This document shows positions 8,294 to 36,410 of a stretch of DNA of 64,000 bases, piece by piece. The stretch lies in IMG/VR virus record IMGVR_UViG_3300022555_003200, one strand, 5' to 3'. A program made the position numbers and the translations under genes. The notes under the pieces were generated by a model. That model ran no database searches. It worked only from the letters and a program-made list of their open reading frames with translations, and was not told the origin of the DNA. Source of the DNA: a virus (taxonomy: Duplodnaviria > Heunggongvirae > Uroviricota > Caudoviricetes). Each line of letters starts with the position of its first letter. Position 1 is the stretch's first letter.

Positions 8294-9991
8294 ATGCCTA
8301 ATCACGTAACGAACATACTCACCATAGAAGGCCCTACCAAGAGAGTAAAAGAGATCTTTGCTGCCATCTCTCCTGTGGACCCAACGCTTGCCAGTAAGCC
8401 ACTTCCGGCTCGCAAGGCTGGTGTGGTATTTGCTGCGGCCTCTGAAGAAGAGGTGGCCCGCAGAAAAGTAGACATCCACGAGATTGACTTCGGCAAGATC
8501 ATCCCGGCTCCTAAGACGAAGGCATATAGGAACCAGGGATGGTACAACTGGAACATTGAGCATTGGGACACTAAGTGGAATGCCTACAGCCAAGAGAAGG
8601 TAGATGACCATACGATGCGGTTTGATACTGCTTGGGGGGCTCCTTACGCTATCTTTAGAGCACTTAGCGAGAAGTTCCCGGATGTCACTATCAAAGTTAG
8701 GTATGCTGACGAGGACTTTGGCCAGAACTGCGGGGAGCTCGAGTATCGTGGAGGCAGTGAGACCTACAACGCTGGCATAGAGGAAGGAAGCAAGGAAGCC
8801 TATGAGCTAGCGTTTGATGTTAAGGGGTATGGCGCGGATGAGTATGTATACGACGAGAAGAAGGGTACTTATGTCTACAGAGACAACGCTGAAGATAATG
8901 AGCCTGTCCACAACGAGTCAGTTAAGAACGTAGGCAGGATGACTGCGGACCTAAAGAGTATCTTTGAGGCTGATCATGTGTTCAAAGCGGCTAGCGCTGA
9001 GGATGTGGCCAAGCGCAGGGAAGATCTGGACCGGAAGACGGGGGAAGTAAGCAAGTCTTTCTACGACGCTGAGTACAAGAGGAACGTGGACGTTTTACTA
9101 TACAAGCGCCGGTCGGACTGGTCAGACTCAGATGCTCCTAAGTGGACAGTTGAGTTCGACAATGGCTACCACGGCGGGTATTACGTAAGCACAATCTTTG
9201 GGAAGGATGAGAGGATTGGACATTACCGCAGGGTGGGCTGTCGCGGGGTGGGTCTAGTACTGCACGGTGGGGATGAGAACAGGTCAGCAATAGGCGCACA
9301 GTGCATGGATACGATCATGGACTGGATCGCGGCTACGATACATGCTCGCGGCGAGAAGATCGAAGAGGCGGGTGTGATGCCTAACGCAGGGGATGAGAAT
9401 CTGATCAGCCACGAGACTCTTAGCGGAACGGACTACAAGCATCAGTCAGTCAACAAGCCAGTATTTAAGGCTGCTAACCAGGAAGAGCTTGCAAGGCGTG
9501 GGATCAAGCAGCCTAAGTTCCAAAATGGTCAGCGGGTTGTCTACCACACTTCAATACGCGGCATTGATGATTACTTGGATGGGCGCATTGGAACGATAGC
9601 GATGTATCGCCCTGTTGAAGACTCAACAGGCGGGGTGCTTTACCGTTACGAAGTTAAGTTCGTGCACCCATTTATTTTCTTTAGGTGGACTACTGAGGAT
9701 TACCTGACTCCTGTGACGAATGAAGCGGCTGAGGAAGTGTTCAAAGCAGCAAGTCCAGAAGATGTAGCTAAGCGTCCTGAGTCAAAGATTCAGGTTGGGG
9801 ACACAGCAATGTACATGGGCGGAAATCCATCAAGCAAGTACTACCGCAGGTTTTGCAAAGTTACTGACATGCGCACAAATACTTACGGGACTAACTGGGT
9901 AGTGCACGATGTCAGGGCCGACATCAAGTTCCAGGATGGTAAGGGACTTAGGAATGTGGATGTTGATCACTTGGAGAAGATTTTTCAATGA
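8294..9991 (+). CDS. FKAA-tagged polyprotein: YubB/DUF1281-like ferredoxin-fold domain plus two SH3-like modules
   Basis: MPNHVTN...WNIEHWDTKWNAY...FDTAW; 4 tag copies. Confidence 0.75.
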   Translation: MPNHVTNILTIEGPTKRVKEIFAAISPVDPTLASKPLPARKAGVVFAAASEEEVARRKVDIHEIDFGKIIPAPKTKAYRNQGWYNWNIEHWDTKWNAYSQEKVDDHTMRFDTAWGAPYAIFRALSEKFPDVTIKVRYADEDFGQNCGELEYRGGSETYNAGIEEGSKEAYELAFDVKGYGADEYVYDEKKGTYVYRDNAEDNEPVHNESVKNVGRMTADLKSIFEADHVFKAASAEDVAKRREDLDRKTGEVSKSFYDAEYKRNVDVLLYKRRSDWSDSDAPKWTVEFDNGYHGGYYVSTIFGKDERIGHYRRVGCRGVGLVLHGGDENRSAIGAQCMDTIMDWIAATIHARGEKIEEAGVMPNAGDENLISHETLSGTDYKHQSVNKPVFKAANQEELARRGIKQPKFQNGQRVVYHTSIRGIDDYLDGRIGTIAMYRPVEDSTGGVLYRYEVKFVHPFIFFRWTTEDYLTPVTNEAAEEVFKAASPEDVAKRPESKIQVGDTAMYMGGNPSSKYYRRFCKVTDMRTNTYGTNWVVHDVRADIKFQDGKGLRNVDVDHLEKIFQ

Positions 9992-10341
9992 GCCTGGAAA
10001 AAGACATTACATCACTCAAGAAGATCATGGAAGCTGACAACGTCTTCAAGGCTGCTGGTGGTGATGAACTAACCAGGCGCATGGGACCTATAGCCGCTGA
10101 GAAGAAGGCCGCTATTGCCGAGGGCAAGGTATGGTGCAATGACTGCATGAAGGTTCCTAGAGCGCTTATGGTTGAGTTTGGTATAGCTAATCAGAAGGTA
10201 CGGCTTAAAGACGATGGCAAGTCCATCGCTAGCTTGGGAGAGGTGAACGTTCAGGAGCCTAACTACATTGTCTGCGTTGACTGCTACCAGGGTAATTTAG
10301 TGAATGAGAAGCAAATAATAGACAAGCTGAATGATTGGTGA
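9988..10341 (+). CDS. leader + FKAA-tagged Zn-ribbon protein
   Basis: MSLEKDITSLKKIMEADNVFKAAG; WCNDC...CVDC. Confidence 0.8.
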   Translation: MSLEKDITSLKKIMEADNVFKAAGGDELTRRMGPIAAEKKAAIAEGKVWCNDCMKVPRALMVEFGIANQKVRLKDDGKSIASLGEVNVQEPNYIVCVDCYQGNLVNEKQIIDKLNDW

Positions 10342-10344
10342 TTG

Positions 10345-11433
10345 ATGAGCTTAGAAAACGACGTTACTCAGGTGATGGCTCAGCTGCATGAAGGGTATGC
10401 AGACGCTAAACGTACGTTTGTTGACTTGGGGAAGATTGCTGAGGATGCATTTGAGCAGCTTTCTGAGAAAGATCCGACCAGTCAGAAGAAGTACCTTGTG
10501 TGGATGTGCAGGCAATACATTACCACACCCGAGTTAGGAAAGTTCGATATTATCCGGCAGTTCCACGACTTGGCTTTTCGGGGGATTATTAAGAATAGCG
10601 ATATATATTCTTATAAAAGCATCCAAGATGTGGAGAAAGCAGTGGAGGATTCCCAAGGTATATTTACCGGATCTTCTCTTAGGAAAGGGTCTAAAGAGAT
10701 TGGTAAGATCCCAGCAGATATTGTGAGACTTGACAATGACAAGGTTGTGATTATTGAACCCCGTGATAAGAACGAAGCTATTTACTATGGAAGAGGGTCT
10801 AAGTGGTGCACGGCCGCTATGGGAAGAGGCAATCTGTTTAGTAACTACCATACTGCAAACAAGAGGCTCTATTACATTTTAGCTAAGAATCCTACTAATG
10901 AGGAATCAGACAAGTTTGCGGTATCCTACAGGTTGCTTTCACCTCGCGTGTTTGGGCACGAGGATCCATCTAGCACGCCTAGGTATGAATGGATATTATG
11001 GACAAAGGAAGACCGTGGCTATTACCGCAATGACAGGGGGGTAGATACCATCCTTAGTCAACTAGGGTTGTCTGCTAGTGATTTAGCTGGGATGTTTGAT
11101 AAGTATGCTCCAAAAGAGTTCACAATAGGTGAAGCCAGTGTAGTGTATGACTCGCCTAAGATAAAAATCTACTACATAGATGATGTGGATACTGCGATCG
11201 AGCTCGGTAAGGGTACTGAATGGTTTGTGGCCGCTCCTTCCGATAATCAATTTGGTAATTACTACGGAATGAGCGGATACAACATATATTACTGGTTTTC
11301 AAAGATTGATGATCATAAATACTTGATGCTTCAGCCGCCTGCTGATGGTGGCAGTAAGGTGACACTGTGGGACGAACGAATGATTCCCGCTAATTTTAAA
11401 AAGATGGCGGCTAAATATGGAGTTCCTGCATGA
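10345..11433 (+). CDS. leader-bearing protein with two YGxG[ST]xW(C) repeats
   Basis: MSLENDVTQV; YGRGSKWCTA and LGKGTEWFVA. Confidence 0.75.
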   Translation: MSLENDVTQVMAQLHEGYADAKRTFVDLGKIAEDAFEQLSEKDPTSQKKYLVWMCRQYITTPELGKFDIIRQFHDLAFRGIIKNSDIYSYKSIQDVEKAVEDSQGIFTGSSLRKGSKEIGKIPADIVRLDNDKVVIIEPRDKNEAIYYGRGSKWCTAAMGRGNLFSNYHTANKRLYYILAKNPTNEESDKFAVSYRLLSPRVFGHEDPSSTPRYEWILWTKEDRGYYRNDRGVDTILSQLGLSASDLAGMFDKYAPKEFTIGEASVVYDSPKIKIYYIDDVDTAIELGKGTEWFVAAPSDNQFGNYYGMSGYNIYYWFSKIDDHKYLMLQPPADGGSKVTLWDERMIPANFKKMAAKYGVPA

Positions 11434-11855
11434 ATCTATACGAAGCAGTGACATCACTTAAGAAGATGTTTGAAGCGAACTGGGTGTTTAGAGCGGCCGA
11501 CCCGGAAGAGGTTGTGGCGCGTCGGGAGATCTACAAGTCCTGGGTCGTACTGGATACTGCTGATGTGAGGGTTGTTGAGCTTGAGTCTAAGGAACTTGCG
11601 ATCGAGTACGGCAAGGGTACTAAGTGGGAAATCTCAAGCCCTGACGCGTCAAGGAATACGTTCTCTAGATATTACGCACTTGGCTATTCATTTTACATTG
11701 TCTTTAACAAAAGATCAGGCAAGCGAATGGTAGTAAGTATTCCTCCTCCTGATGCCGATTCAACCGACATAGAGTATTACTCGGAAGATAACACTGTTAT
11801 TCCTGAAGAGACGGCTAAGCAGGAGCTGAAAGAACTCGGAGCTATAGCATTATGA
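11430..11855 (+). CDS. leader + FRAA-tagged protein, paralog of the 10345 repeat
   Basis: MFEANWVFRAAD; YGKGTKWEIS. Confidence 0.75.
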   Translation: MNLYEAVTSLKKMFEANWVFRAADPEEVVARREIYKSWVVLDTADVRVVELESKELAIEYGKGTKWEISSPDASRNTFSRYYALGYSFYIVFNKRSGKRMVVSIPPPDADSTDIEYYSEDNTVIPEETAKQELKELGAIAL

Positions 11856-12190
11856 GCTTACACGAAGCAGTGACATCACTTAAGAGAATGTTTGAGGCAA
11901 GTCCAGTCTTCAAAGCTGCCGGGCCAGAGGATATGGATAAGCGTAAGAGTGTGATGTCCTCAGCGAAGCAGAAGGCGTTAGCAGAAGGCAAGGTGTGGTG
12001 CAACGTCTGCGAGGCTGTTCCGACGTCTCTCTCGTGTACTTACGAATGGGCTACAGAAAACGCTAAGCTCAAGGACGGCAAGTTTGTTGACGGGTATTGT
12101 GGTGTCGACGAGACAGGCGATCGCAGTGCGACCAGCTGCGGCGAGTGTTACGAGTATGACTTAGAAAACATGGATAAGGTTGTGTGGTGA
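11852..12190 (+). CDS. leader + FKAA-tagged Zn-ribbon protein, paralog of 9988
   Basis: MFEASPVFKAAG; AEGKVWCNVC...CGEC. Confidence 0.8.
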   Translation: MSLHEAVTSLKRMFEASPVFKAAGPEDMDKRKSVMSSAKQKALAEGKVWCNVCEAVPTSLSCTYEWATENAKLKDGKFVDGYCGVDETGDRSATSCGECYEYDLENMDKVVW

Positions 12191-12191
12191 T

Positions 12192-12467
12192 ATGAGCCTA
12201 TCTAAAGATGTCTCAGAGATAAAGAAACTTGTTGAAGCTAAGCCTGTGTTCAAAGCAGCTAGTAGGGAAGAAGTGGCTAAGAGACCCAATCCCTTTAAGA
12301 CGCACAGGTTTAAGTTTGATCTTTGGAATCTTGTGGATGTGAACGAGCTTAACGAACACCTTGATTCTTTAGTTGGGAATGAAATGCCGTCAGACATTAC
12401 GTATAAGTTTTTAAGAATAACTCCGGATGGCGTTGTTACAGTCGATGCCACTTACGTTGCTGAATAA
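12192..12467 (+). CDS. leader + FKAA-tagged small protein
   Basis: MSLSKDVSEIKKLVEAKPVFKAAS (start ATG 12192). Confidence 0.8.
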   Translation: MSLSKDVSEIKKLVEAKPVFKAASREEVAKRPNPFKTHRFKFDLWNLVDVNELNEHLDSLVGNEMPSDITYKFLRITPDGVVTVDATYVAE

Positions 12468-12480
12468 AATAGGAATAATT

Positions 12481-12756
12481 ATGTACGCGGAACTATTAAA
12501 AGAACTCATCGAATCCAGGAAGAAGTACTTCGTTGCCGACAGCATCAATGCTGAAGAAGAGATCGGCTATACAGACGAGCAGCTCTCTGAGGTTATTAGA
12601 GAGAGCATGGAGCTTACAAGCAATCTTTTTAGCGAGATGTGTGAAGTTGAGGAAGTACACGAGAACATTCACAACCCTCGGTGGGGGTACAACGACCAAG
12701 AAGATTTATGTTGGTGCTACAGCCCAGAAGAGAACATGTGCTATTTTTACCGATAG
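12481..12756 (+). CDS. hypothetical protein
   Basis: ATG 12481 with AGGA SD, 91 aa. Confidence 0.6.
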   Translation: MYAELLKELIESRKKYFVADSINAEEEIGYTDEQLSEVIRESMELTSNLFSEMCEVEEVHENIHNPRWGYNDQEDLCWCYSPEENMCYFYR

Positions 12757-12762
12757 GACTCT

Positions 12763-13455
12763 ATGAATAACTACGGGTACATATATGAAACGATAAATAG
12801 TGCGACGGGGATGCTTTATGTCGGTAAGCATAAGGGCGCTTTTGAGTCTTGGTATCACGGAGGGGGCACGCGTATAAACCGTGCAATTAAAAAATATGGT
12901 AAGAAAGCTTTTACAACAAGGCCAATTGCTTATGCAAGAACTAAGGATGAGCTTAACGAGCTTGAAGTAGAGCACATAGCCAAGTACAAAGCTACGTATG
13001 GGGCAGACAAGCTCTACAACATATCTGAGGGTGGCGACGGAGGCGGCGGCCTTACTCGTCACTCTAGTGATTGTGTGTGCTGTTTTTGCATGGGTAAGCG
13101 TGGAGAGTTGAGTGGGTCTAACTGTCCTAGGTATGGCAAAACGTATCGATATGTTCGTAACAAGGCTACTGGTGAAAGACGTATGATTGCTCCTGAGATG
13201 CTTAGTGAATACATTATTGCCGGCTGGGTTAGATGCTCTACTGGGAGTAGGGTTGGCAAGAATAATGGTATGTACGGTAGACGGCATACAGAGAAAGCTA
13301 GGAAGGGAATGAAGGAGAATCGGCCAGACCAGTCAGGCAAAAGCAATGGTATGTTTGGGGTTCACCGGTATGGAAGCGCCAATCCGATGTTTGGTAAGAG
13401 TGACTCAGCTAAACGTGGCTGGGAGACTAGAAGAAAGAACATGGTGACTAAATGA
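12763..13455 (+). CDS. free-standing GIY-YIG homing endonuclease with NUMOD3-like repeats
   Basis: YGYIYETIN...YVGKH (GIY-YIG); GKNNGMYGRRHT and GKSNGMFG repeats. Confidence 0.85.
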   Translation: MNNYGYIYETINSATGMLYVGKHKGAFESWYHGGGTRINRAIKKYGKKAFTTRPIAYARTKDELNELEVEHIAKYKATYGADKLYNISEGGDGGGGLTRHSSDCVCCFCMGKRGELSGSNCPRYGKTYRYVRNKATGERRMIAPEMLSEYIIAGWVRCSTGSRVGKNNGMYGRRHTEKARKGMKENRPDQSGKSNGMFGVHRYGSANPMFGKSDSAKRGWETRRKNMVTK

Positions 13456-13970
13456 GCCTGTCTAAAGACGCAGCAGAGATCAAGAAGATGGTGGAAGCTA
13501 AGCCTGTATTTAAGGCGGCTAGCCCTGAAGAAGCACAAGCACGTAGAAATGTGACGGCAACTCAGAGGCCTTGGGCTATTTCTAAGAGATCTCCAAAGAT
13601 CATTGAGTCTGCAGATGGCAAGTATCGTATTGCTAAGTTGTTTGGGGATGAGTACGACTCTGATGAAATGGAAGCGAACGGAAAGTTAATTGTAAATGCG
13701 GTTAATGCTTACAAAGCTAGTGTAACTGAAGCTAAGCCAGTTTTCAAGGCAGCTGACCAGGCGGAGCTAAATAAGCGCCGGGCGGCCCGCGGGACTAAGC
13801 TCTACCGTTTCATCTACAAGTGCTATGCAGTTATCGAAGCGGCAAGCCCGGAAGATGCCCAGAGCAGGTTTGAAGAGATCGACCTGTTTTCAGATGACAT
13901 GCACAGCGCACAGGACGTGAAGATCTTCGACGTGCTTGATTCAGGATACCCTGAGGAATACACATCGTGA
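13452..13970 (+). CDS. leader + two FKAA-tagged modules
   Basis: MVEAKPVFKAAS, VTEAKPVFKAAD. Confidence 0.8.
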   Translation: MSLSKDAAEIKKMVEAKPVFKAASPEEAQARRNVTATQRPWAISKRSPKIIESADGKYRIAKLFGDEYDSDEMEANGKLIVNAVNAYKASVTEAKPVFKAADQAELNKRRAARGTKLYRFIYKCYAVIEAASPEDAQSRFEEIDLFSDDMHSAQDVKIFDVLDSGYPEEYTS

Positions 13971-14362
13971 GCTTAGAGAAGGACATTACACTTATCAAGA
14001 GCATGGTTGAGTCCGGTAATCCAGTCTTCAAGGCCGCTAGCCAAGAAGAGGTGGCTAAGAGGAGCCCTAAGGACTTTAAGATACGTATCGAGCCGGCTCC
14101 GGGGGAAGACTACAACATAATTACTGTAAGCAACTTTCGCTTGCCGCTTGGGAATAACTATAGATCAGACCACTTCTTTCGTGCTCTCATCGAAGAGTAT
14201 CCGGAGATCATTGACGAGCTAAGGGCGTACTCAGCCAATGACTCTGTTAGGTTCGACTATCGTGGAAGCTACGGGGCACACGAGGATAACTTTTCTATGT
14301 TAGACATATACGACTATGTGCGTGCTCACTATGACGATGTTCGTGCTAACGAGGAGCTCTAA
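13967..14362 (+). CDS. leader + FKAA-tagged protein
   Basis: MSLEKDITLIKSMVESGNPVFKAAS. Confidence 0.8.
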   Translation: MSLEKDITLIKSMVESGNPVFKAASQEEVAKRSPKDFKIRIEPAPGEDYNIITVSNFRLPLGNNYRSDHFFRALIEEYPEIIDELRAYSANDSVRFDYRGSYGAHEDNFSMLDIYDYVRAHYDDVRANEEL

Positions 14363-14961
14363 TGAAACCGGGACATGACGCGGTAGAACTTAAGAAGCTC
14401 TTCGAAGCTGGTCCAGTCTTTAAGGCAGCTGGCCCCAAGGACCTCAAGCAGCGCAAGAACGCGCTTGGCAAGCCGTGGCTGAGCATTCGTGTGGTGTTAG
14501 CTAATAACGAAGAGCAGGCTGTAGAGCAGGTGGTTGAAGGGAACTTCGAGGAGACTCACCCGCTGTGCGACGTGGTGCTTCCGGCCTCAGACGTTAAGGT
14601 GAACAACAAGTCAGGCAGCACCTGGGCGTGGACCCCGGTTGATCAGATGACCGAAGCTTCCAAGCCTATATTCAGAGCAGCCGGCCAAGAGGATATGTAC
14701 AAGAGGGCGGCGGAGCTTAGGGCTAAGAGTCCAGCAATAACTCCTGAGAACAAAGCTTTAGCGCAACTCTACTGGAAGACTGTTACCGATATCGAGTACG
14801 AGCTTGCCCAGTTGAGAGAGCAGTACGGGTTAGACGATGAAGACAAGTGCGAGTGCGAGATCACGGACTCAATCTCTTTTCCAGATGATTACGGCAGCAT
14901 CGCTAACTACTGCCTCAAGTGTGGTGGTGATGCTGGCAGCCGGCCGGAGGTGGCTGAATGA
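14362..14961 (+). CDS. leader + two FKAA-tagged modules
   Basis: LFEAGPVFKAAG, MTEASKPIFRAAG; C-terminal CxC..CxxC. Confidence 0.8.
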   Translation: MKPGHDAVELKKLFEAGPVFKAAGPKDLKQRKNALGKPWLSIRVVLANNEEQAVEQVVEGNFEETHPLCDVVLPASDVKVNNKSGSTWAWTPVDQMTEASKPIFRAAGQEDMYKRAAELRAKSPAITPENKALAQLYWKTVTDIEYELAQLREQYGLDDEDKCECEITDSISFPDDYGSIANYCLKCGGDAGSRPEVAE

Positions 14962-16889
14962 GCTACGAGCGGGATATTATTGCACTCACGGAAGACATTG
15001 AGAACGCTGTCTTCAAGGCCGCTAACGCTGACCAGATCACTAAGCGCCGTGAGGCGGGGTTGGTTGAGCTTCAGAACAAGTTTAAGCCTGGCACTAAGGT
15101 CATCAAGCACAGTGAGAGTATATGGAATGGAAAGCGTGTTAAGACTTCAGCCAGGGGCGAGGTTATTCAGGTCCATAAGCAGCACACACCAGATGGGTCG
15201 CCGCTGATCTCTGTTCTGTTTGGATATGGAAGAGGTCTTGTATGGCCTGAAGATCTAGAGATCGTCAACGAGGCTGGACCAGTGTTTAAGGCCGCGTCAT
15301 CAGAAGAAGCTGAGAAGCGCAAAGAAGCACACACTAGGAAGCTCACTGACGATACGGTTATTTCAATTTATGTGACCATGGAGCTAGGGGGAAACGTTAT
15401 ATTTAAAGAGGCTCTTGGCGTAACAGACTACAACAAGTACAAACAGCACTTTAACAACGATGACGTGTACAAGTCCGCGAAGGTTCTGGAATATGTAAAA
15501 GCTAGGGCTGTTAAAGAGTGTCAGCTGTATAAAGCGAATGTAGAAGTTCAGAGGGTAGCATTTAATGAATCCTATAGCTACTCGTCTGTGTCATGCAACG
15601 TATGGTTCTCTATAAGGCTCCGAGGGCCAGTTGGCGAGCTTAAGAAGGTTGCTGGTGAAGACAAGGATCTACAGCTTGATTGGAGATACATCGAGGATCA
15701 TATTCTAGAGTCTAACGTATTCAAGGCAGCAAGTCGCGAGGATGCTAGGAAGAGAAGCAACACGGAGTATGAGAAGATCGTAGCTAAGTTCAAGCCGGGG
15801 ACGAAGGTTGAGTACAACGACTATTACGGTTCGAATCCTGATAGATATAGAGTTCTAACTGGAATAGTTGATAGGGTTCGTAATATGCGCCCGCCGCTTC
15901 CGAATCTTACAGGGTTTGACGCGATCGTGGACGTGTACTTCGCAAACATTAAGAGAATGTACAACTTGCCACCTGAGCATTTAACGATTGTTGAGTCAGT
16001 GCGCGAGGCTAAGCCAGTCTTCAGAGCTGCTAGTCCGGAAGAAGTGATGGCCCGTAAGCCACAGCCGAAGATGGTGAAGTACCAGATACCTCTCTACACG
16101 TTTGACCAGCTCGATGGCAAGGCGAAGGATGCTGCTAGGAACTGGATGTATGAGCGTGGGTACTCAGATGTCGACTGGGATATGACTAAAGATGATGCTA
16201 AGCAGGTGGGGGTGGATCTTCACGGAAGAGATAGTGATAGAAGTCCCATGAAGGGTGAGTTTATGTGGGAGCCAGACGAAGTTGCTAAAAAGATTCTTGT
16301 AAACCATGGTAAGGACTGTGGCACCTACAAAGCGGCTAAGGAGTTCATCGCCGACGCTAGAAAAGCTCGTGGTGACGAAGATATGTTTGAAGAGATCACT
16401 CGTGTGTTTCTAGAGAAAGTCCTTGAGGACTACAGGAGATTACTCATAGAAGACGAAACGTACCACGCAAGTGATGAGCATCTTGAAGAGATGGCTGAAG
16501 CAAATCACTTACTATTCACAGAGAGTGGTAAGGCTTTCAGGCCGGACTCCGGCTGGACTATGATCGAGCGGAAGCTTAAGGAAGCCGGTGAGCCCGTGTT
16601 CAGGGCAGCGAGCCGAGAAGACGTTAAGGCTCGCAGGAGATCCGCGGCGCCTGTGTATGTGGTGTTTGACGTTAACATGGTTCCGATAATATTCGACAAC
16701 GAGACTGAGGCGCTTGAGTGTGCGAAGTCTCTCAAGCCGCGTTCAACACCAGGTGGAATGAGGGTAGAAGTCTGTGCTTATGAAGTACTTCCAGGACCTA
16801 AGATTGGCCAGAAGGTTAGACAGATCTATGGGCCACCTAACCAGCTAAGACTGTCATTCATTAAGCAAGCAGCGAGCGGACACTACTAA
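14958..16889 (+). CDS. leader + five FKAA-tagged modules (643 aa polyprotein)
   Basis: 5 tag copies; two KFKPGTKV SH3-like modules. Confidence 0.8.
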   Translation: MSYERDIIALTEDIENAVFKAANADQITKRREAGLVELQNKFKPGTKVIKHSESIWNGKRVKTSARGEVIQVHKQHTPDGSPLISVLFGYGRGLVWPEDLEIVNEAGPVFKAASSEEAEKRKEAHTRKLTDDTVISIYVTMELGGNVIFKEALGVTDYNKYKQHFNNDDVYKSAKVLEYVKARAVKECQLYKANVEVQRVAFNESYSYSSVSCNVWFSIRLRGPVGELKKVAGEDKDLQLDWRYIEDHILESNVFKAASREDARKRSNTEYEKIVAKFKPGTKVEYNDYYGSNPDRYRVLTGIVDRVRNMRPPLPNLTGFDAIVDVYFANIKRMYNLPPEHLTIVESVREAKPVFRAASPEEVMARKPQPKMVKYQIPLYTFDQLDGKAKDAARNWMYERGYSDVDWDMTKDDAKQVGVDLHGRDSDRSPMKGEFMWEPDEVAKKILVNHGKDCGTYKAAKEFIADARKARGDEDMFEEITRVFLEKVLEDYRRLLIEDETYHASDEHLEEMAEANHLLFTESGKAFRPDSGWTMIERKLKEAGEPVFRAASREDVKARRRSAAPVYVVFDVNMVPIIFDNETEALECAKSLKPRSTPGGMRVEVCAYEVLPGPKIGQKVRQIYGPPNQLRLSFIKQAASGHY

Positions 16890-17387
16890 ATGAGCTTAGA
16901 AAACGACATCACAACCGTAAAGATGATGGTTGAGACTAATGATGCTTTTATGGATCACCCAGATCCTAGTGGACTTGGGCATGCGGCAAATGATCCTAGA
17001 AACTGTAAGCTTGTTTGGTGGTATGACCCAAGGTCTGCTGAGTTTGTAAAATCGCGAGATCCTAAGCATCTTCATGTACTTGATGTTAGCCGTAACGTTA
17101 TAAAAGACTATCAGCATTGGGTTCGGGGGCGTGTGTTTCAGTATCAAGGTAAAGGATATCTGGTTGTTTATTTTCCTGAGAAGAAGCACTTATTAAGTCA
17201 TCAACTGGTAGATATTTTGGATAAGGCAATGAATAGCGTCGATATTCAAATAGATAAAGTCATTGATGATAATGGTCGTGATTTGCATGATATGCTCGAG
17301 TCTCTAAACGTTTATACGCTAGAGCACTCTTCTCTTGGAGCATGGAAGATAAATGCGAGTGGATCTGTCATAGAGGTAGCTGTTTAA
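16890..17387 (+). CDS. leader-bearing hypothetical protein
   Basis: MSLENDITTVKMMVE; no FKAA tag. Confidence 0.75.
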   Translation: MSLENDITTVKMMVETNDAFMDHPDPSGLGHAANDPRNCKLVWWYDPRSAEFVKSRDPKHLHVLDVSRNVIKDYQHWVRGRVFQYQGKGYLVVYFPEKKHLLSHQLVDILDKAMNSVDIQIDKVIDDNGRDLHDMLESLNVYTLEHSSLGAWKINASGSVIEVAV

Positions 17388-27066: not shown

Positions 27067-28242
27067 ATGAGCCTAGAGCAGGACATTACAGAGGTAAGGA
27101 AGAAAGTCACAGAAGCAACGCCAGGTAAGAACTACGACATCAGTGTGGTCCCGCAGGACAAGCAGCAGTGGATCTCAGCAGGTGATGATGTCATCAACCA
27201 GATCCTTCCTGGCCTTCCTCCGGAGCAGCAGGAATACTTGATCAAGATCAACAGCGATAGCTACACAGAGCTTGTTGACAGAGTCGAGGCCCTTACGGGC
27301 ATTACAGTCACTCCCCGTAATGTTCCAAGACTTATTGGTCTTGTAATGCAGTCGATCGCCGAAGTTAAGAGTATCGAGAGTAAGAACAAGAATCGCTTAG
27401 AAGAGATGGCTATAGAGCTTGTGTTCAGCGTTCCTGAGTTCAAGGTGGTTGAGCAGGCATACCTAAATGACGAGATCTCGATTGACGCGAAGCTTGGTCC
27501 CGCGGAGCTAAGTAAGCTTACACAGCAGGAGCAGCCCGAAGACCAGGAAGAGATGCAGGATGGTCTTACAACAGACGAAGAGGCTAACCTTGAAGTAGCT
27601 CAGTACCTGGAGAAGGCTACAGATGAGGACATTAAGCGCAGGTTCGCTAACCTGATGACTTCAGGCGGCGCAGTAGGGAAGCTTTATCTATACAACTTGG
27701 CAGCCGATAAGCTTGCCAGGTTCAACCCGAAACTGCCGGCTCTGTATGGTATCCTATCCTCGATTGTCCACCTAGGCTACTGGATAGCTCCTACAGGTAT
27801 AGAGAAGATGGCCGCTCAGAGAGAAGACACAAGCATGGGCTCTGAGGAAGTGGTTTCTGATGGAGACAAGTACGTCATCAAGGCTCGTGCGGTCACATTC
27901 CCGTATCTAGTTCACGAGCTTGTTAAGGGCATTTACGAGTACCTCGCCTTAGATCCTAACCAGCAGAATGCTATGAAGAAAGATAACGTCGAAGCTGAGA
28001 CGCGTGACTTCATGGCAGGCCCCGGAATCCACAAGACCGTTTTATCCTACATACCGGATGACAAGCAGGAGTTGATCCCTATGGTTCAAAGTAAGCTAAC
28101 AGCCATGGCTCCTGCGGATATCAAGGATGTGCTCGCTAAGAACTTTAACGGCAAGAAGATCATGGCGGACCTCATGAAGCAGGCTGAAGAAGAGTGGTCT
28201 GGTTATAAACAGAAGAAAGATAACTACAAGGAGTCCTTCTAG
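27067..28242 (+). CDS. leader-bearing helical hypothetical protein (391 aa)
   Basis: MSLEQDITEVRKKVTE; IKARAVTFPYLVHELVKG. Confidence 0.75.
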   Translation: MSLEQDITEVRKKVTEATPGKNYDISVVPQDKQQWISAGDDVINQILPGLPPEQQEYLIKINSDSYTELVDRVEALTGITVTPRNVPRLIGLVMQSIAEVKSIESKNKNRLEEMAIELVFSVPEFKVVEQAYLNDEISIDAKLGPAELSKLTQQEQPEDQEEMQDGLTTDEEANLEVAQYLEKATDEDIKRRFANLMTSGGAVGKLYLYNLAADKLARFNPKLPALYGILSSIVHLGYWIAPTGIEKMAAQREDTSMGSEEVVSDGDKYVIKARAVTFPYLVHELVKGIYEYLALDPNQQNAMKKDNVEAETRDFMAGPGIHKTVLSYIPDDKQELIPMVQSKLTAMAPADIKDVLAKNFNGKKIMADLMKQAEEEWSGYKQKKDNYKESF

Positions 28243-29646: not shown

Positions 29647-30807
29647 GTGAGTTTTGAGAATGATATTACAGAGATTTATAAGCTTGCTAAAGCGGGTGAG
29701 CCACTCCTAGAGGGGTTTGCTGAAGCCAGAAGGCGCTACGTTGAAACTCTTGATCCTGCGACACAACAACCGCTGATGCCTCTTGCAATGCTTAAGCGAC
29801 TTGCTGCTAAGGATCCTACATACCCGGCTAAGGGAAAGTACGTTGAGTGGATCGCTAAACAGTACATGAACAGCCACAGTATGCGTGGGCTAGACGCGGT
29901 AAAGGAGTTCGACAAAATCCTTACCACTAAGCCGACGTACCTCGAGAAGAAGGACATCAACCAGTACACCACGGTTGATGATCTCCATAACGCAGTTGAC
30001 GCAGTACGGGCCAGGGTTTCCGCGGAACGTGAGCAGAAGAAGGATAGGATTGTCCGCGGACTTCTTGCGAAAGCCGGAGGGTCTGAGGACAAGGCTTTCA
30101 AGTGGGCTGCCGGGCAGGGTGCAGTTCGTAACGCCGCACACGATGCCGGTGAGCAGATATCTGATGAAGAGGCAGCTAGAAGGGCCGCAGAGCTAGGAAG
30201 AGGCAGCCTTGTGAACGAGTATGGCATTACTCTTGAGTACGTTAAGAAGATCAAGAAAAAGATGCAGGCAGAAGGAGCAGGAGCTGCCTGGAGAGACTTT
30301 TCGATCGACACCGACATCTTTAACGAGATAGCGCGTGAGCCATATTCCATTGAGACTAAAGATTCTGATGGTAAAGTTACTACCGTACCCCTTCCGGCCG
30401 ATCTCGTATTCGAGAACGACAAGGTAGCAATCGTATGTCCTCCTAACGAGGAGAAGAGCAGGCTGTATGGACGCGATCCTGACTATGATCCGAACGATCC
30501 ACATCAGACCGGTTCTCCGTGGTGTACTTCATACGCCACTCGCAGCACCCAGTGGGGTAACTACTACGGGCGCCAGGGAGATACGTTCTATATCATTATG
30601 CCTAAGAGCATTGATATCGTTCCTGAAAAGAGGTTTAAGAAGATCAATGTTCAGGTAAAGGCAAAGCGTCATGGTGAGACTGATGACTCCCCCGTGCGTT
30701 TGACTGCATGGGACTGCAACGATACTCCTATCCCGAGACCTGAGTCCAGGAAGATATTCAAGGCTTGGGGTATACCGCCACAGAAAACTGTGGATGACAA
30801 CGATTAG
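29647..30807 (+). CDS. leader-bearing WCT-motif protein, paralog of 10345
   Basis: KYVEWIAKQY...KDINQY; SPWCTS...YY...FYII. Confidence 0.75.
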   Translation: MSFENDITEIYKLAKAGEPLLEGFAEARRRYVETLDPATQQPLMPLAMLKRLAAKDPTYPAKGKYVEWIAKQYMNSHSMRGLDAVKEFDKILTTKPTYLEKKDINQYTTVDDLHNAVDAVRARVSAEREQKKDRIVRGLLAKAGGSEDKAFKWAAGQGAVRNAAHDAGEQISDEEAARRAAELGRGSLVNEYGITLEYVKKIKKKMQAEGAGAAWRDFSIDTDIFNEIAREPYSIETKDSDGKVTTVPLPADLVFENDKVAIVCPPNEEKSRLYGRDPDYDPNDPHQTGSPWCTSYATRSTQWGNYYGRQGDTFYIIMPKSIDIVPEKRFKKINVQVKAKRHGETDDSPVRLTAWDCNDTPIPRPESRKIFKAWGIPPQKTVDDND

Positions 30808-30808
30808 C

Positions 30809-31084
30809 ATGAGCTTGGAAAAAGACATATCCCAAATTAAGAAGCTTGTTGAAGACGACAGTGTCTTTAAGGCTGCCGGTCCTGACGAAGTGTCCAAAAG
30901 ACCAAAGCACTACGTTGACGCTCTTAAAGAGACTGTAGACACTCTTATTGGTAGGCTGAACTGGCTTAAGCACGACTTGGACAGGGGAGTCATTACGTTA
31001 GATGTTGATGTGCAGTCTGCTGCTAAGAAGGTTCATCTATATTTGAAATCTGCAGAACATGAGCTCGATGAGAGTGGATTATGA
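30809..31084 (+). CDS. leader + FKAA-tagged small protein
   Basis: MSLEKDISQIKKLVEDDSVFKAAG. Confidence 0.8.
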   Translation: MSLEKDISQIKKLVEDDSVFKAAGPDEVSKRPKHYVDALKETVDTLIGRLNWLKHDLDRGVITLDVDVQSAAKKVHLYLKSAEHELDESGL

Positions 31085-32679
31085 GCCTGGAAAAAGACAT
31101 CACATCACTCAAGAAGATCATGGAAGCTGACAACGTCTTCAAGGCTGCTGGGCCGGATGAGCTTAAGAAGCGCGGGTGGCATAGGGATGTAGATTCTATG
31201 CTGAAGGTCAACACTATTCAGAACAGAGACTACAGCATCTCTGGGCCACATTGGATTGGACGTTCAGAGAACCACCATGACTCCTATGCTCGCAAGACAG
31301 AAGGGGCTCAGTGGGCTGTTTATATTATGCAGAGAGACCATGATTTTGATACTACTATGAAGAACTTGGATCGTAGGCTCGCGGCCTGTGTGCGTAAGTA
31401 TTTTAAGACAGAGGCTGAAGCCACTCAGTATATGAGCACAGACGCGTTTGAGAGAGACCTACCTACGCTTGTTGAAGCCGAGCAGGTGTTTAAGGCAGCA
31501 GGACCAGATGAGCTGGCACAGCGCAGGGTTGAGTATCCGGAGACAACTCATTTTCACGGTGGCAGAGTGTATGGCCCGGGGTCTAACCGTGGGTTTATAA
31601 GTAACTGGATTAATGGGGTACGTAATACAGCGCGTCCAAGAAACATGCGCAGTGAGGGAGATGTTCTCTACTCTTATGGAACTCCGATCGCCATTAAGAA
31701 GGAAGGGCTTATTTACTCTGTGGACAGGAGGTTTTCTGTAACGACGTCTAAGCAACAATACTATGTCAGAACACAGGCCGGAGATAGGCTCAGGCTTGTG
31801 CCGCAGGATGAGTTTAAGGCTCTGGCACGCGAGGCTGGAGCGAACTACATGGGGTGGCTCGGAGAGTCTGTAAGCGAGGCTAAGCCAATATTCAGAGCAG
31901 CTGGGCCGGAAGACATCGCCAAGCGTAAGGAAGACAGGATCAAGGCTATTGGGGCTCATGCTGATGCTAATAGTGGTGAGTGGTTTGAGATAGCAAGGGC
32001 CGAGCTCTCGAGGGAGCTTGCGGTAGCTATTGAGCTTGTTGATGACGGTGGTCTTTACGGGCCGGCTACTATGCAGGCAGTGGATGGCGAGGGGAGCAAC
32101 GGGGAGAGGGAGTGGGCCGTCTACAGGGATTCTGATAACGCTGAGCAGGCGGCTATCGCCAGAGTAACTGAGGACATGAATGATGATCCGCCCATGTTTA
32201 CAGAGAGTTTCATTCAGCAATACATTTCTATTCGTCCAACGGATAGGCGGATGATCGCTCAGGAGGAGTCTGATAATTATGTGGATGAAGTGCTGCGGGA
32301 CGCGGACGTTTTAGAAGAAGCTGGGGTGACTGACGAATACGAGGAGCTCCAGGCAAAGATAGACAGTACGCGCTCTGAGGCTAGGAAAATAGCGTTAGAG
32401 AAGACACAGGAAGACATGCTTGAGTCCGCTAAAGAGACAGTTCGCGAGAAGAAGTATGACGAGATCCATGCCGCTCTTGAGGACCCGATTCAGTATTTTG
32501 TTCATGACCATGGTATTTATAGCATTCAAGACCTTATGAAAGCTAGCTTTATATACATTGATACCGATGAAGCTGCCAAAGATGCAGTGGACACGGATGG
32601 AGTAGCGCACTTTCTTGACAACTACGATGGTAGCGAAGTCGATCTTCCGAGTGGCGCAGTAGCGTTTGGTACTAACTAA
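31081..32679 (+). CDS. leader + three FKAA-tagged modules (532 aa)
   Basis: IMEADNVFKAAG, LVEAEQVFKAAG, VSEAKPIFRAAG. Confidence 0.8.
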   Translation: MSLEKDITSLKKIMEADNVFKAAGPDELKKRGWHRDVDSMLKVNTIQNRDYSISGPHWIGRSENHHDSYARKTEGAQWAVYIMQRDHDFDTTMKNLDRRLAACVRKYFKTEAEATQYMSTDAFERDLPTLVEAEQVFKAAGPDELAQRRVEYPETTHFHGGRVYGPGSNRGFISNWINGVRNTARPRNMRSEGDVLYSYGTPIAIKKEGLIYSVDRRFSVTTSKQQYYVRTQAGDRLRLVPQDEFKALAREAGANYMGWLGESVSEAKPIFRAAGPEDIAKRKEDRIKAIGAHADANSGEWFEIARAELSRELAVAIELVDDGGLYGPATMQAVDGEGSNGEREWAVYRDSDNAEQAAIARVTEDMNDDPPMFTESFIQQYISIRPTDRRMIAQEESDNYVDEVLRDADVLEEAGVTDEYEELQAKIDSTRSEARKIALEKTQEDMLESAKETVREKKYDEIHAALEDPIQYFVHDHGIYSIQDLMKASFIYIDTDEAAKDAVDTDGVAHFLDNYDGSEVDLPSGAVAFGTN

Positions 32680-32699: not shown

Positions 32700-35600
32700 A
32701 TGAGTGCTGATAAAACAATTTTTGAAAAAATGTTTAACCACGTTAATCCAAACGTAGGATCTACTGCTGAAAACGTTGCTAAGAAAGAGGAGGCTGCTAA
32801 GACTCTTGGTCAGAGCATTCAGGAGAACGTGAAGATGGACGCTGCTATGAGGCCGGAAGTTGTTAAGGAGTCAGAGGAAGTTGAGATGCTTAACAACATG
32901 CACCGTAAGGACTTCGGGGATGTTGAGGATATTGAGTCGGAATCTGAAGACAGCGCTTCTCCGGACTTTCGCTTGCTACTTAAAGGGGTGCAGAAGGATG
33001 TGTCCACTAAGTACGCGGATACTTGTGGGATCTGCCCTGACGTAGACGGTGACATTATTCCTATTGGAAGCGAGACTGCAAAGTCTTCTGCCAGGCACGA
33101 TGAGGTTGAGCAGCACATGAAGGATCTCGCCAAGGAAGTTGGACAGAACACCGTTCAGCAGCAGGTAACTGCCCACCAAACTGAGGCCGATGAGCTCCCA
33201 AAACAGGAGCCCGAGGTTCATACTGCTATAATGTCGGAAGAGCCCAAGGAAGAGATTGTTTGTGAAGAGCCAGCGGGCGAGATATCGACGGAAGATGAAG
33301 TAGAAGGTGAAGAAGTGTTTAAGGTGAATGTTCCCGCGAAGCTGTCGAAGGTTGCTGAAGAACGTGACCCGTGGCTTCCGCATGTTGCTGGGCAGTGCAT
33401 GGTTTGCAAGAAGCCCGCTACTATCAAGGATGCTAAGGGTGGAGAGTATTGCTCACCGGAGTGCCAGAAGTCCCCGGCGCCTAAGTCTAAGATGAGGACG
33501 TTCTCGTACCCCACTGAGTTAGGCGTTGTTGGGCGCCCGGCAGCTTTAGAATCCAAGAAGCTTAAAGAGACGTCTGGTGAGGCTGACCATTATCAGGTTA
33601 TTGGGATAAGCAAGCCTAAGGACATCAAAGAGACCACCGTTGATATATGCTGGAAGTATGCCGGAAAATCCGGTGTTGTTGGAGGACAGTTTGAGTCAGT
33701 TGAGGACTTCCTACGCAAGAGCAGCGACAGGAGTCTCGAGTGGTACCAGGTTGACGGGCAGGACAAGGTTTCAATGATTGAAGCCAAGATCAAGCCGCTT
33801 AGCGAAGCTGGTAAGAAGGTATTTAAAGCTGCATCGCCTGATGATATTTCTAAGCGTCCTAACTCTGCAAAATACTCCGAGTGTGACATCTGCAAGCAGC
33901 CAATGAACCCACATAACGAAGGCTGCTGGTCCCATATGATCGATTCCAAGGGTGAGTGGGTTGAGCGTATTCCTTATGGCGGCGAAGGTGAAGATACGTC
34001 GATGCCTTGCGGCGACTGCAACGTTAAGTCGTTTGGTTATCACCATGACGGCTGCGACAGCGAGCACTGCCCGCGTTGCGGCGGCCAGATGCTTGGCTGT
34101 GAGTGCGACTGGACGAGCATTGGTAAGCGCAAAGCTAAGTCTCCTAGGGCTGTTGAGTCTAAGAAGCACGAGTTTGGTGATTCAACTGTATCTGACTTCC
34201 GCGGCATCTTTGAAGGAGCCAAGAAGATTAAAGAAGCTTCCACTCTTGAGCCGGGCGACGACGACCTAAGTCCGACTGAGGAAGACTGGAAGAGCGAGGA
34301 GACGTTCCCCATCCTTAGGCCAACTACCCCGGAGCGCAAGCCGACTGACGAAGGCGCTTTCGAGGACTATCTGTGGAAGATGGATGTGAAGGAGCTTCGC
34401 GAGCTTCTATCAAGCGACCGTACCAAGGGTGATGCTGACAGGCTTAGCCGCAGAGAGCTTCAGATCGTCAATACTGTTATCAGGCGCAAGGAGCTTGGCG
34501 AGCGGAAGGTAAGCGAAGCTGGTGAAAATAATCCAGGATATTGGACGAGGACCAAAAAAGGAAAGCGCAAATGGAACTCAACTAAGGCGTACACGCAGAC
34601 TCCAGGAACTAAGCCCTGCAAGAGCTGCGGCAAAGACATGGCCGAGGAAGGCGCGGATGAGTGTAACGACTGCTTTCTAGATCACAACAGTCCAGTAGAA
34701 GAAGCTAAGAAAGTCAATGAAGACGGCATGGCGCCTGGCGGCGGAAGCGGAACTGTAGCCGCTATGGCAAGTGCAATTCCTCCTACTAAGGTTGACAGAA
34801 ACAAGATGCCAGATTCAGTCCCGGCGCAGAACCCGGAGACACATGACAATACAGAGAAGCAGCCTGAGGCTAATGAACAAGGTGACAAAGAGTACTTTGG
34901 CAAGCAGGGAGATGATAACTACTACTATCTCCTGTCAGTGCCAGCCGAGGATGAGGGATCACAGGGCGGTATTTCGAGTGAGGAAAAGCCGGACGTGACT
35001 CCTAATGTTGCCCAGGCCGAGGAAGCTCCTGCTGAAGAGAAGACTCCTGAGTCGATGGTTGCAGGGTTTAAGGAATCTGTTGATCCAGCAAATGACTTTC
35101 ACTTTATCAAGGAACAGCTTTCTGAGCTCTTGAAGAGCTGGGAGAGCATTGCTTCACGTCAGGATTCTATGGGTAATGTTAAGGGTCGTCTCGAAGCACT
35201 CGTTAACGCGATGAACGAAGCTAAGATAAACGAAGAAGACACGCTTGCTGGAACCCAGAACTTTGCGAGCCTTCAGATCATCGATGCAAGCGGAAAGGTA
35301 GTTAAGGATGACAAGAGTGCCGAGAAGAGCACCGACAACATTAAGAACTTCCTCTTGCAGGCGATGGATGAGCTTGAGCTTACTGAGTTAGCTCCGGACA
35401 TCGTTAAGAAATACTTGCTCGCGGATGAAGTAAGCACTGAGGATGACGAGATGACTAAGACCCCGTCAGAAGATGAGACAAATAAGGTTCAGGGCGAACC
35501 GCCGACGAAGACCGAGAAGCCTAAGCCAGGTCAGAACATGGCGAGTGAGTCCATAGATAAGTTGATGGAGAAGTTTAATTTGAGTGAAAAGAAAGAGGAC

Positions 35601-36410
35601 ACGGATATGAATGAGTTTAACATCAATATTATGCTAGATAAGTTTGGGCTAGGCGAGCCAACAGTAGTTGAATCGCTACTAGAGAAGTACAAGCTTAACG
35701 AAGCCCCGGAAGTCTTTAAAGCCAAGCAAGCTAAGGGAGCCCCTGAAGAAAAGCCTAGGGACAGGGATTTGACTGGCGAGCCTATGGTTCCAAAGGATTT
35801 GCCGGCCGGAGAAGCTCCTATCGCAGATCCGTCAGCCCCAGGAGAAACTATTCCTGGAACACCGAACAACCTCGCCGGCGAACCTACAGAAGACCCCGCT
35901 GTCGGTCAGGTTGATCCGGGTGTGACAGCTCCTGTAGGTGGTGGAGTTCCAGGAGGTCTTGCTGAGCCACTTGCTCCAACAGCTGCTCAGGACATGAGCT
36001 CCCCGGAATCGTCCAAGGCATATATCCAGAGTGAGTACCCGGAAGAGCCGTTTACATCAACGGCGCTTGCTTACGCGGACTCTATGATTGCTGATCCTAA
36101 TGTTTACGGAAAGGTTCGTAACATGCAATGGGGCGGCATTTGGAGTGACGCTGAGACACTAAAGAAGCAGGCTAAGATCGTTGGTGACTACGGTAATTTC
36201 TCTCCAGACACGGTTGAGGCTATTACAGACAGGTTTGGCAACACAGCCAAGTATAAGCTTGCTAGAGACGTTCGCCCGGTTATTTTTATTACGGTACGCG
36301 ACGTTGGCGACGGCGTTGAGCCGATCTCCCTAAGCGAGCTTAAGGGTCTTTCTGGAGCGCGTGAAGTACAGGCCACAGAGAACCCTGGTGAATGTAAGGT
36401 TGTGTACTAG
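32700..36410 (+). CDS. large acidic multi-module protein, putative prohead core/internal polyprotein (1236 aa)
   Basis: Many [ILV]xE-[AST] junctions, one full FKAA tag, two degenerate tags, Zn domain. Confidence 0.6.
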   Translation: MSADKTIFEKMFNHVNPNVGSTAENVAKKEEAAKTLGQSIQENVKMDAAMRPEVVKESEEVEMLNNMHRKDFGDVEDIESESEDSASPDFRLLLKGVQKDVSTKYADTCGICPDVDGDIIPIGSETAKSSARHDEVEQHMKDLAKEVGQNTVQQQVTAHQTEADELPKQEPEVHTAIMSEEPKEEIVCEEPAGEISTEDEVEGEEVFKVNVPAKLSKVAEERDPWLPHVAGQCMVCKKPATIKDAKGGEYCSPECQKSPAPKSKMRTFSYPTELGVVGRPAALESKKLKETSGEADHYQVIGISKPKDIKETTVDICWKYAGKSGVVGGQFESVEDFLRKSSDRSLEWYQVDGQDKVSMIEAKIKPLSEAGKKVFKAASPDDISKRPNSAKYSECDICKQPMNPHNEGCWSHMIDSKGEWVERIPYGGEGEDTSMPCGDCNVKSFGYHHDGCDSEHCPRCGGQMLGCECDWTSIGKRKAKSPRAVESKKHEFGDSTVSDFRGIFEGAKKIKEASTLEPGDDDLSPTEEDWKSEETFPILRPTTPERKPTDEGAFEDYLWKMDVKELRELLSSDRTKGDADRLSRRELQIVNTVIRRKELGERKVSEAGENNPGYWTRTKKGKRKWNSTKAYTQTPGTKPCKSCGKDMAEEGADECNDCFLDHNSPVEEAKKVNEDGMAPGGGSGTVAAMASAIPPTKVDRNKMPDSVPAQNPETHDNTEKQPEANEQGDKEYFGKQGDDNYYYLLSVPAEDEGSQGGISSEEKPDVTPNVAQAEEAPAEEKTPESMVAGFKESVDPANDFHFIKEQLSELLKSWESIASRQDSMGNVKGRLEALVNAMNEAKINEEDTLAGTQNFASLQIIDASGKVVKDDKSAEKSTDNIKNFLLQAMDELELTELAPDIVKKYLLADEVSTEDDEMTKTPSEDETNKVQGEPPTKTEKPKPGQNMASESIDKLMEKFNLSEKKEDTDMNEFNINIMLDKFGLGEPTVVESLLEKYKLNEAPEVFKAKQAKGAPEEKPRDRDLTGEPMVPKDLPAGEAPIADPSAPGETIPGTPNNLAGEPTEDPAVGQVDPGVTAPVGGGVPGGLAEPLAPTAAQDMSSPESSKAYIQSEYPEEPFTSTALAYADSMIADPNVYGKVRNMQWGGIWSDAETLKKQAKIVGDYGNFSPDTVEAITDRFGNTAKYKLARDVRPVIFITVRDVGDGVEPISLSELKGLSGAREVQATENPGECKVVY

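Follow-up and report, generated by a model that had tools for sequence, protein, structure and literature searches.

Tagged genes between the portal and protease genes

We analyzed a 64,000-nucleotide (nt) stretch of DNA from an uncultivated giant phage of freshwater, a tailed virus of the class Caudoviricetes (IMG/VR record IMGVR_UViG_3300022555_003200), here called the window, in which one short peptide tag recurs in many genes of the head module. All genes of the window lie on the + strand and form a myovirus structural module with a portal gene, a head-maturation protease gene, a gp23-family capsid gene and, further on, tail genes. A six-frame regular-expression search combined with a hidden Markov model (HMM) found the tag in 36 copies in 19 open reading frames (ORFs), on the coding strand only. 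The 28-kb interval from portal to protease holds 18 of the 19 tagged ORFs, and all 19 belong to the head module. This block is densely packed, with 35 of 51 gene junctions overlapping or no more than 15 nt apart. The regular expression detected 34 canonical [VI]F[KR]AA copies on the + strand, each with the extended tag context, and one chance match on the - strand that lacked this context. A degenerate VFAAA copy is found at amino acid (aa) 45 of ORF 8294, and an IFQAAS copy at aa 582 of ORF 17342/17387 was found with the HMM. The highest numbers of tags per ORF were six in ORF 17387, five in ORF 14958, four in ORF 8294 and three in ORF 31081. These results reproduced exactly the total, the number of ORFs and the distribution given in the initial annotation of this DNA.

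The tag is a 14-residue peptide with the consensus E-A-x(1-3)-P-[VI]-F-[KR]-A-A-[SG]-x-[ED]-[ED]-φ-x-[KR]-R, where φ is a hydrophobic residue. In an alignment of 35 copies, F(+1), A(+3), A(+4) and R(+12) were invariant. Position +2 is Lys except for six copies with Arg, one with Ala and one with Gln in the window. The DNA encoding the tags had a mean nucleotide identity of 0.61 over 42 nt, the third-position identity at identical four-fold residues was 0.29, and every Ala, Arg, Phe and Lys codon was used among the copies. Since synonymous sites are randomized, selection appears to act on the tag peptide and not on a DNA repeat, which was also what the initial annotation had concluded from synonymous codon variation. 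When the tag was modeled with AF2 in the gene group at 13452-16889, it came out at low confidence as a coil followed by a short helix starting at the P-E-E turn; the adjoining cargo fold scored 70-79 and the tag was not packed against it. A low-confidence coil and short helix next to a better-defined cargo is as expected of a linear motif.

Three other explanations of the repeated peptide were considered and set aside. A DNA-level repeat or recombination joint would call for conserved synonymous sites, which the third-position and nucleotide identities above do not show. Covalent attachment through the lysine, by an isopeptide or acyl bond, is argued against by the Arg found at +2 in six copies and by FRAA, FRPA and FQPA versions elsewhere, so that this Lys is not strictly invariant. 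Cutting inside the tag at [SG]-x-E, as in phiKZ, would use the Glu at +7, which is present in only 24 of the 36 window copies and in about half of the head-block copies of a second, 215-kb tag-bearing genome, G001. We also noted a partial tag remnant, ..IEAASPEDAQSRF, without the φ-F-K start, at aa 130-143 (nt 13839-13880) in the second module of ORF 13452. It looks decayed.

A second conserved element was detected at the N-terminus of 23 head-module ORFs. This is a 15-residue leader, MS[LF]E.DIT.IKK[LM][VM]E (for example, MSLEKDITxIKKLVE), and it was found both with and without the tag. At least six proteins (ORFs 10342, 16890, 26125, 27067, 29647 and 41248) carry the leader only, and 20 of the 36 tag copies have no leader before them. 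Looser versions head conserved head genes downstream of the capsid gene and also occur in tagless relatives. By this distribution the leader is a second element, independent of the tag. T4 capsid-targeting sequences (CTS) are 10-20 residues long (PMC5694885, PMC3012670). The leader resembles them in length, in position and in its hydrophobic-x-Glu end, being an N-terminal stretch of 10-20 residues of the propeptide type. The N-terminus of the capsid protein itself (39674-39740, MSKELNSLVE|S...) resembles the shared leader; the leaders may have arisen from the capsid propeptide or have given rise to it.

The gene that follows the block, ORF 37538, encodes a protein whose N-terminal part (~aa 1-235) is gp21/S77-like. 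A profile of eight protease relatives matched T4 gp21 (5JBL) at E 4.7e-4, seven of the eight matched Pfam Peptidase_S77, and His76, Ser140 and Asp172/176 were invariant among them; the window protease alone gave no significant Pfam match. The remaining ~470 residues are charged and coiled-coil-like and contain several φ-x-E-[AS] motifs. ORF 37538 thus looks like a protease-scaffold fusion, its C-terminal sites being as in a scaffold that gets chopped up, and no separate gp22-like scaffold gene was evident between the portal and capsid genes of the window. In the capsid protein we predicted two cleavage sites, LVE10|S and LLE64|S. The ...LENALLE motif of the second site is conserved across 37 relatives, and we take its position to be equivalent to that of the T4 gp23 cleavage. 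The window therefore encodes both a gp21-family (S77) protease and a gp23-family capsid protein, as in T4-type phages. Proteases of the gp21 family cut after Glu (PMC5694885, PMC10052503). The density of φ-x-E-[AS] motifs in the block was 4.3 times that in the tail genes.

We then compared the positions of the tags with those of the φ-x-E motifs. A motif of the form [LIVMF]-x-E was present within six residues upstream of 33 of the 36 window tags, and all three exceptions were in ORF 8294; the initial annotation had estimated that about 32 tags follow [ILMV]-x-E, in good agreement with this count. For non-N-terminal tags in 283 non-redundant proteins of the family, φ-x-E was coupled to 260 of 289 tags (90%), compared to 11.6% at random positions in the same proteins. 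The association was broken in both directions. The capsid protein, the scaffold part of ORF 37538 and the leader-only proteins have φ-x-E sites without a tag, indicating that the tag is not required at the predicted cutting sites. On the other hand, tags without an upstream site were found at aa 45 and aa 390 of ORF 8294 and in eight ORFs of G001. If the tag were a junction motif on the P' side of the cut, every site would be tagged and no tag would lack a site, and the exceptions ran both ways. At the level of sequence, then, the tag and the predicted cleavage site are separable.

One of the two clearest arrangements of this kind, the other being in G001, is in module 1 of ORF 8294, which matches Pfam DUF1281_C and is Api92-like. 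Its AF2 model had a predicted local distance difference test (pLDDT) score of 85, and Api92 (2IJR) was its only significant PDB match. The N-terminus of this module, MPNH..N, is invariant across the whole family. In tag-bearing phages the module has an insertion of 30-40 residues, carrying the tag, in the loop after the first strand-helix unit, and alignment showed that tagless bacterial and phage Api92-like homologues do not have the insertion. Since the family-invariant N-terminus presumably cannot be extended, the module would take its tag in a loop. This suggests that each mature module has one tag, kept even by loop grafting.

Cargo modules, turnover and distribution

The modules that follow the tags have little in common. 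BLASTP identified only six related pairs among 61 modules, in line with the earlier description of the cargo as unrelated. Most modules are acidic, with a median isoelectric point (pI) of 4.7 and 29 of 35 below pI 6. Pfam and PHROGs recognized almost nothing in the window cargo. The presence of Zn-ribbon cargo, based on Cys counts and one weak Pfam match, is plausible. A structural search with one cargo returned only weak YbjN/CesT-like neighbors (TM 0.3-0.55), which were set aside. Across the tagged family, Pfam domains included ankyrin repeats, GNAT, Api92-like domains, Zn ribbons and a TnsA-like nuclease, and these would fit effector-like rather than structural roles. With the BLASTP result, the diverse Pfam domains and the loop graft, the tag has the encapsulin-like property of a short portable peptide common to unrelated cargo.

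Exchange and loss of modules were both detected. Homologues of ORF 14362 in other phages share module 1 and differ in what follows the second tag. Contigs from three lake-metagenome runs have a natural 899-bp deletion corresponding to window positions 14048-14946, and the full form is also present on a contig in at least one of the three runs. At the breakpoints there is a 9-nt microhomology, GAGGTGGCT (E-V-A), which ORF 13967 has in its tag and ORF 14362 in its final codons. Three cargo modules are lost: ORF 14362 is missing entirely, and ORF 13967 loses its cargo and is left as a 31-residue leader and tag stub in phase with the start of the next gene. Because this variant exists in nature, these modules are accessory and dispensable. 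A second apparent joint, from 10058 to 15993, was seen on one contig with 8 mismatches in 50; it looks like cross-alignment of tag-coding DNA and was disregarded.

We determined the distribution of the tag by searches at several levels. A profile of leader and tag matched at least 172 protein clusters (E <= 0.001) among 1.84 billion representatives, and 132 of the best 150 clusters were not identical to proteins of the window or G001. Scans of IMG/VR and JGI metagenomes with the leader and tag pattern found only the G001 contig and one 1.3-kb contig. Tagged genes again follow the portal gene in G001 and in L024, an 84-kb contig with a T4-type portal, so that the order of portal and then tagged genes is found in three genomes including the window. 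Pfam Portal_T4 was matched at the same position in the relatives L022 and L024. Each genome has its own, homogenized flavor of the tag: VFKAA in the window, FKGA in 13 of 13 copies in L012, EAG-LFKPA in L013 and EAD-VFKPAS in L017 and L024. FKPA is the commonest flavor overall, FKAA and FKGA are likewise lineage-specific, and the invariant residues persist across lineages with different flavors. Tags are absent from relatives whose capsid proteins are 55-70% identical, indicating that the tagged block is a lineage-specific expansion; in L022 the interval from portal to protease is only 3.6 kb.

Freshwater and lake metagenomes from four studies contain the phage, and none of the sequencing runs listed with it was an RNA run. 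Against 50,697 phage records, blastn found no match for the protease and capsid genes and tblastn none for the leader and tag; the nearest capsid proteins of cultured phages were less than 28% identical, and a scan of 185,579 prokaryote genomes detected no relative. Tag strings retrieved only unrelated papers from the literature searched, which contained no description of the tag, as the initial annotation had remarked.

Eight small ORFs of G001 start Met-x(2-6)-tag, with the tag at residues 4-8 and with neither leader nor Glu. Four of the eight lie just upstream of the portal gene. Two of these four are fusions of the tag to copies of the capsid propeptide. The copy at 112462-112686 (L005:4463-4687) is 69% identical to capsid residues 20-61, and the more diverged one at 117331-117612 (L005:9332-9613) has 35% identity over 37 residues. 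Two tagless relatives (L004:41-6562 and L021:603-5078) lack the tagged block and have giant ORFs (1,491-2,173 aa) there instead, immediately before the protease gene; these may be an alternative route for loading head cargo.

Possible roles of the tag

Gene context, protease family and site statistics indicate that incorporation into the prohead and cutting after the upstream Glu is the most likely fate of the tagged proteins. The initial annotation had viewed them as packaged polyproteins cut by a gp21-type protease, and this was partly supported by the portal, protease and capsid context, by the 90% coupling to φ-x-E, by LLE64|S and by the CTS-like leaders. It had to be amended in that the tag is separable from the site, the leader is a second element, and G001 has tag-only genes outside the head module. 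Separability shifts the role of the tag away from a cutting signal and toward an autonomous docking peptide. Any of the three roles that the initial annotation had named for the retained tag, in ejection, in the capsid lumen or in docking to DNA, may apply. We consider it about an even chance that the tag is a portable docking peptide, carried once by each mature module of a cargo inside the head whose leader and modules are cut by the protease.

On the model of T4, genes of the block would be expressed with the head genes and their products would enter the prohead core. The gp21-type protease would cut after the Glu of φ-x-E, thereby removing the 15-residue leader and separating the modules of the polyproteins. 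The 14-residue tag would not be the cutting signal; each mature module would retain it as a flexible docking peptide, usually 2-5 residues from the new N-terminus, or inserted in a surface loop of a module whose N-terminus does not allow an extension. The modules, unrelated and for the most part acidic, would all attach through the tag to a single receptor. Candidates for it are the scaffold/protease core, the inside of the capsid shell and the portal or ejection path, and binding would keep the cargo in the head, organize it there or dispatch it. The genome-specific flavors would fit co-evolution with one receptor in each phage and suggest a phage-encoded partner, and the large number of modules suggests an abundant receptor, shell or core, rather than the portal. 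Complex prediction for the capsid protein, the protease domain and the leader with tag gave a score of 0.17 against a mark of 0.32, which does not bear on binding either way. Gene anatomy, site statistics, gene context, family distribution and the separability of tag and site are observations; packaging, cutting, receptor binding and eventual delivery into the host are inferred. A more far-reaching version is that the tag is a 14-residue signal for head loading and retention (or ejection order) with one capsid-internal receptor, sufficient for any module, so that a whole clade of freshwater giant phages would be equipped with dozens of exchangeable, ready-made effectors freed from polyproteins by the prohead protease. 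We put this version forward tentatively, leaning against it.

Several observations weigh against a docking tag inside the head. The Glu-to-tag spacing is constant, at 1-5 residues in most copies, and this would also be expected of a P'-side determinant of the protease. The grafted tag region of the Api92-like model has a high pLDDT (~85) and, as modeled, may pack in cis. The cargo is acidic, unlike the basic, DNA-bound internal proteins of T4, so the analogy with T4 is incomplete. The other four tag-only ORFs of G001 are distant from the head module and on the opposite strand, with small, early-looking genes as neighbors. One of them has a hydrophobic, membrane-like C-terminus, and the whole arrangement is a poor fit to a role in the capsid lumen.

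The first of these points belongs to the main alternative, in which the tag is a recognition or exosite element on the P' side for the prohead protease, a junction cassette that renders each module boundary a good substrate, like the conserved junction motifs of RNA-virus polyproteins, with no role after cutting. This is an unlikely but serious contender. The short distance from Glu to tag and the coupling of nine in ten tags to φ-x-E agree with it, the genome-specific flavors would fit co-evolution with a single enzyme and, as the protease sits in the prohead core, binding to it could also explain incorporation. Against it, φ-x-E occurs without the tag in the capsid protein, the scaffold part and the leader-only proteins, tags occur without an upstream Glu in the Api92-like loop graft, at aa 390 of ORF 8294 and in the Met-x(2-6)-tag ORFs of G001, and known gp21-type sites are described by P4-P1' only (PMC10052503). 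The distant tag-only ORFs of G001, including the membrane-like one, would fit a tag that works in the host cytoplasm, on injected and early proteins, by attaching to a hub of host or phage origin, for example a chaperone, an unfoldase or degron receptor, or another takeover target. The tag would be near a free N-terminus in most predicted mature forms, which agrees with such a role, and a φ-φ-basic-φ pattern near the N-terminus resembles ClpX N-terminal recognition motifs, although this is a lead only. However, four of the eight tag-only ORFs are just upstream of the portal gene and two are capsid-propeptide copies, tying them to head assembly, and conservation over 14 residues with per-genome flavors points to a phage-encoded rather than a conserved host partner. 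We judge a cytoplasmic role to be quite improbable.

It is also conceivable that there is no address system at all, and that leader and tag are the conserved N-terminus of one fast-diverging paralogous family or a DNA recombination joint. Many genes do have an N-terminal leader and tag in common, and the one natural deletion breaks at the 9-nt microhomology inside a tag. But the 20 leaderless copies, and the one inserted in a loop of the Api92-like domain, whose homologues include tagless ones, do not fit a common N-terminus, and BLASTP found almost no paralogy among the cargo modules. The nucleotide identity over the 42 nt of the tag is too low for homologous recombination and synonymous sites are randomized, while the invariant residues persist across lineages with different flavors. 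This explanation is largely refuted by the BLASTP, codon and Api92-like alignment results, and we regard it as very improbable.

A docking tag as proposed here would have parallels in several known systems. In T4, the CTS of IPI-III and Alt (Mullaney and Black 1996, as cited in PMC5694885 and PMC3012670) is a short N-terminal propeptide with a hydrophobic-x-Glu end that is found on diverse cargo and removed by gp21. The window phage is similar in encoding a gp21-family protease and a gp23-family shell, and T4 cargo includes anti-defense effectors. Unlike in T4, a further conserved element comes after the CTS-like leader and is predicted to stay on the mature protein. This element recurs within polyproteins, and it may also be placed in a loop or stand without a leader. 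The cargo is acidic here and basic in T4, and ~25 genes lie in one block between portal and protease, whereas those of T4 are few and dispersed. In the giant phages phiKZ, 201phi2-1 and SPN3US (PMC5694885, PMC10052503), a gp21-related protease cleaves many proteins of the head interior after Glu, some of them at several sites, and a large mass of protein is ejected. These phages differ in having A/S/G-x-E sites, propeptides of 100-250 aa and paralogous families; no retained conserved tag after the site is described for them, their protease is S80 and not S77-like as here, and the capsid families differ.

Outside this group, encapsulin cargo-loading peptides are short, conserved, portable and flexible, and one such peptide sends unrelated cargo inside an HK97-fold shell. 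They are usually C-terminal and bind the shell protomer, with no protease processing. A portable peptide on unrelated cargo is common to both. Polyproteins of RNA viruses, such as those cut at the heptapeptide of potyvirus NIa, also join unrelated domains in one ORF with a repeated conserved peptide at the scissile bond, and in such junction motifs the conserved residues are mostly on the P side and are a determinant of the protease. In the window the conserved residues are on the P' side, and predicted cleavage sites exist without them. The Dar system of phage P1 (PMC12810830, PMC9024508) loads dispensable effectors into the head during assembly and delivers them with the DNA, through dedicated factors (DarA/Hdf). 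It differs in relying on a hierarchy of specific protein-protein dependencies, with no shared peptide tag and no polyproteins.

Internal and ejected proteins are the first phage products that the host meets, and several known ones are anti-defense factors. Apart from the T4 CTS and a few special systems, it is not understood how diverse cargo is chosen for the head. The putative second, retained address element, the apparent rule of one tag per module, the polyproteins and the flavors across at least 170 protein clusters have not been described before. If the tag is sufficient for loading, it would offer a small, naturally occurring handle for loading proteins of choice into phage capsids and a sequence signature with which the injected-effector repertoire of uncultivated phages could be listed from metagenomes. 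The dozens of unannotated acidic modules would then be candidate host-takeover or anti-defense proteins.

Coordinates and other genes of the block

Table 1. Window positions of tagged genes, leader-only genes and the head genes around them
Feature	Position (nt)	Strand	Tags and remarks
T4-type portal gene interrupted by HNH-containing inserts	1945-8064	+	PHROG 213 and 1497 and several HNH endonuclease families; upstream border of tagged block
Leaderless 565-aa polyprotein	8294-9991	+	Module 1 Api92-like/DUF1281; tags at aa 45 (nt 8426-8464), 229, 390 and 482 (nt 8978, 9461, 9737)
Leader and tag gene	9988-10341	+	Tag nt 10042
Leader-only gene among tagged genes	10342-11433	+	No tag
Leader and tag gene	11430-11855	+	Tag nt 11484
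Leader and tag gene	11852-12190	+	Tag nt 11906
Leader and tag gene	12192-12467	+	Tag nt 12246
Leader and tag gene	13452-13970	+	2 tags
Leader and tag gene	13967-14362	+	1 tag
Leader and tag polyprotein	14362-14961	+	2 tags
Leader and tag polyprotein	14958-16889	+	5 tags, nt 15009, 15282, 15717, 16017, 16596
Leader-only gene, leader ending in φ-x-E	16890-17387	+	No tag-HMM match above noise
938-aa polyprotein, leader and 6 tags	17387-20203	+	nt 17624, 18101, 18422, 18683, 19085 (degenerate IFQAAS), 19328
Leader and tag gene	20740-21120	+	Tag nt 20794
Leader and tag gene	21117-21449	+	Tag nt 21180
Leader and tag gene	21446-22057	+	Tag nt 21503
Leader and tag gene	25081-25341	+	Tag nt 25141
Leader and tag gene	25338-26123	+	Tag nt 25392
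Leader-only genes	26125-26352; 27067-28242; 29647-30807	+	Leader, no tag
Leader and tag gene	30809-31084	+	Tag nt 30863
532-aa polyprotein	31081-32679	+	3 tags, nt 31135, 31486, 31888
1236-aa protein, one internal tag	32700-36410	+	Tag nt 33819
Putative prohead protease-scaffold fusion	37538-39652	+	PHROG 207 head maturation protease; no tag
Major capsid protein, gp23 family	39674-41149	+	Pfam Gp23 at 2e-30; no tag
Leader-only gene, TnsA-like nuclease domain	41248-42006	+	No tag
Nineteenth tagged ORF, variant leader and 2 tags	44908-45501	+	nt 44965, 45139; among conserved head genes downstream of capsid gene

Directly after the capsid gene, ORF 41248-42006 has a TnsA-like endonuclease N-terminal domain (Pfam, 6e-8). 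Its product is a candidate head-packaged nuclease, or the gene may be a remnant of a mobile element that gained a leader. Inside the tagged block we found two paralogous GIY-YIG-type genes resembling homing endonucleases (12763-13455 and 26352-27065; 40% identity). GIY-YIG-type genes likewise flank the blocks in G001, L012 and the 84%-identical relative L023, and the block is peppered with selfish elements.

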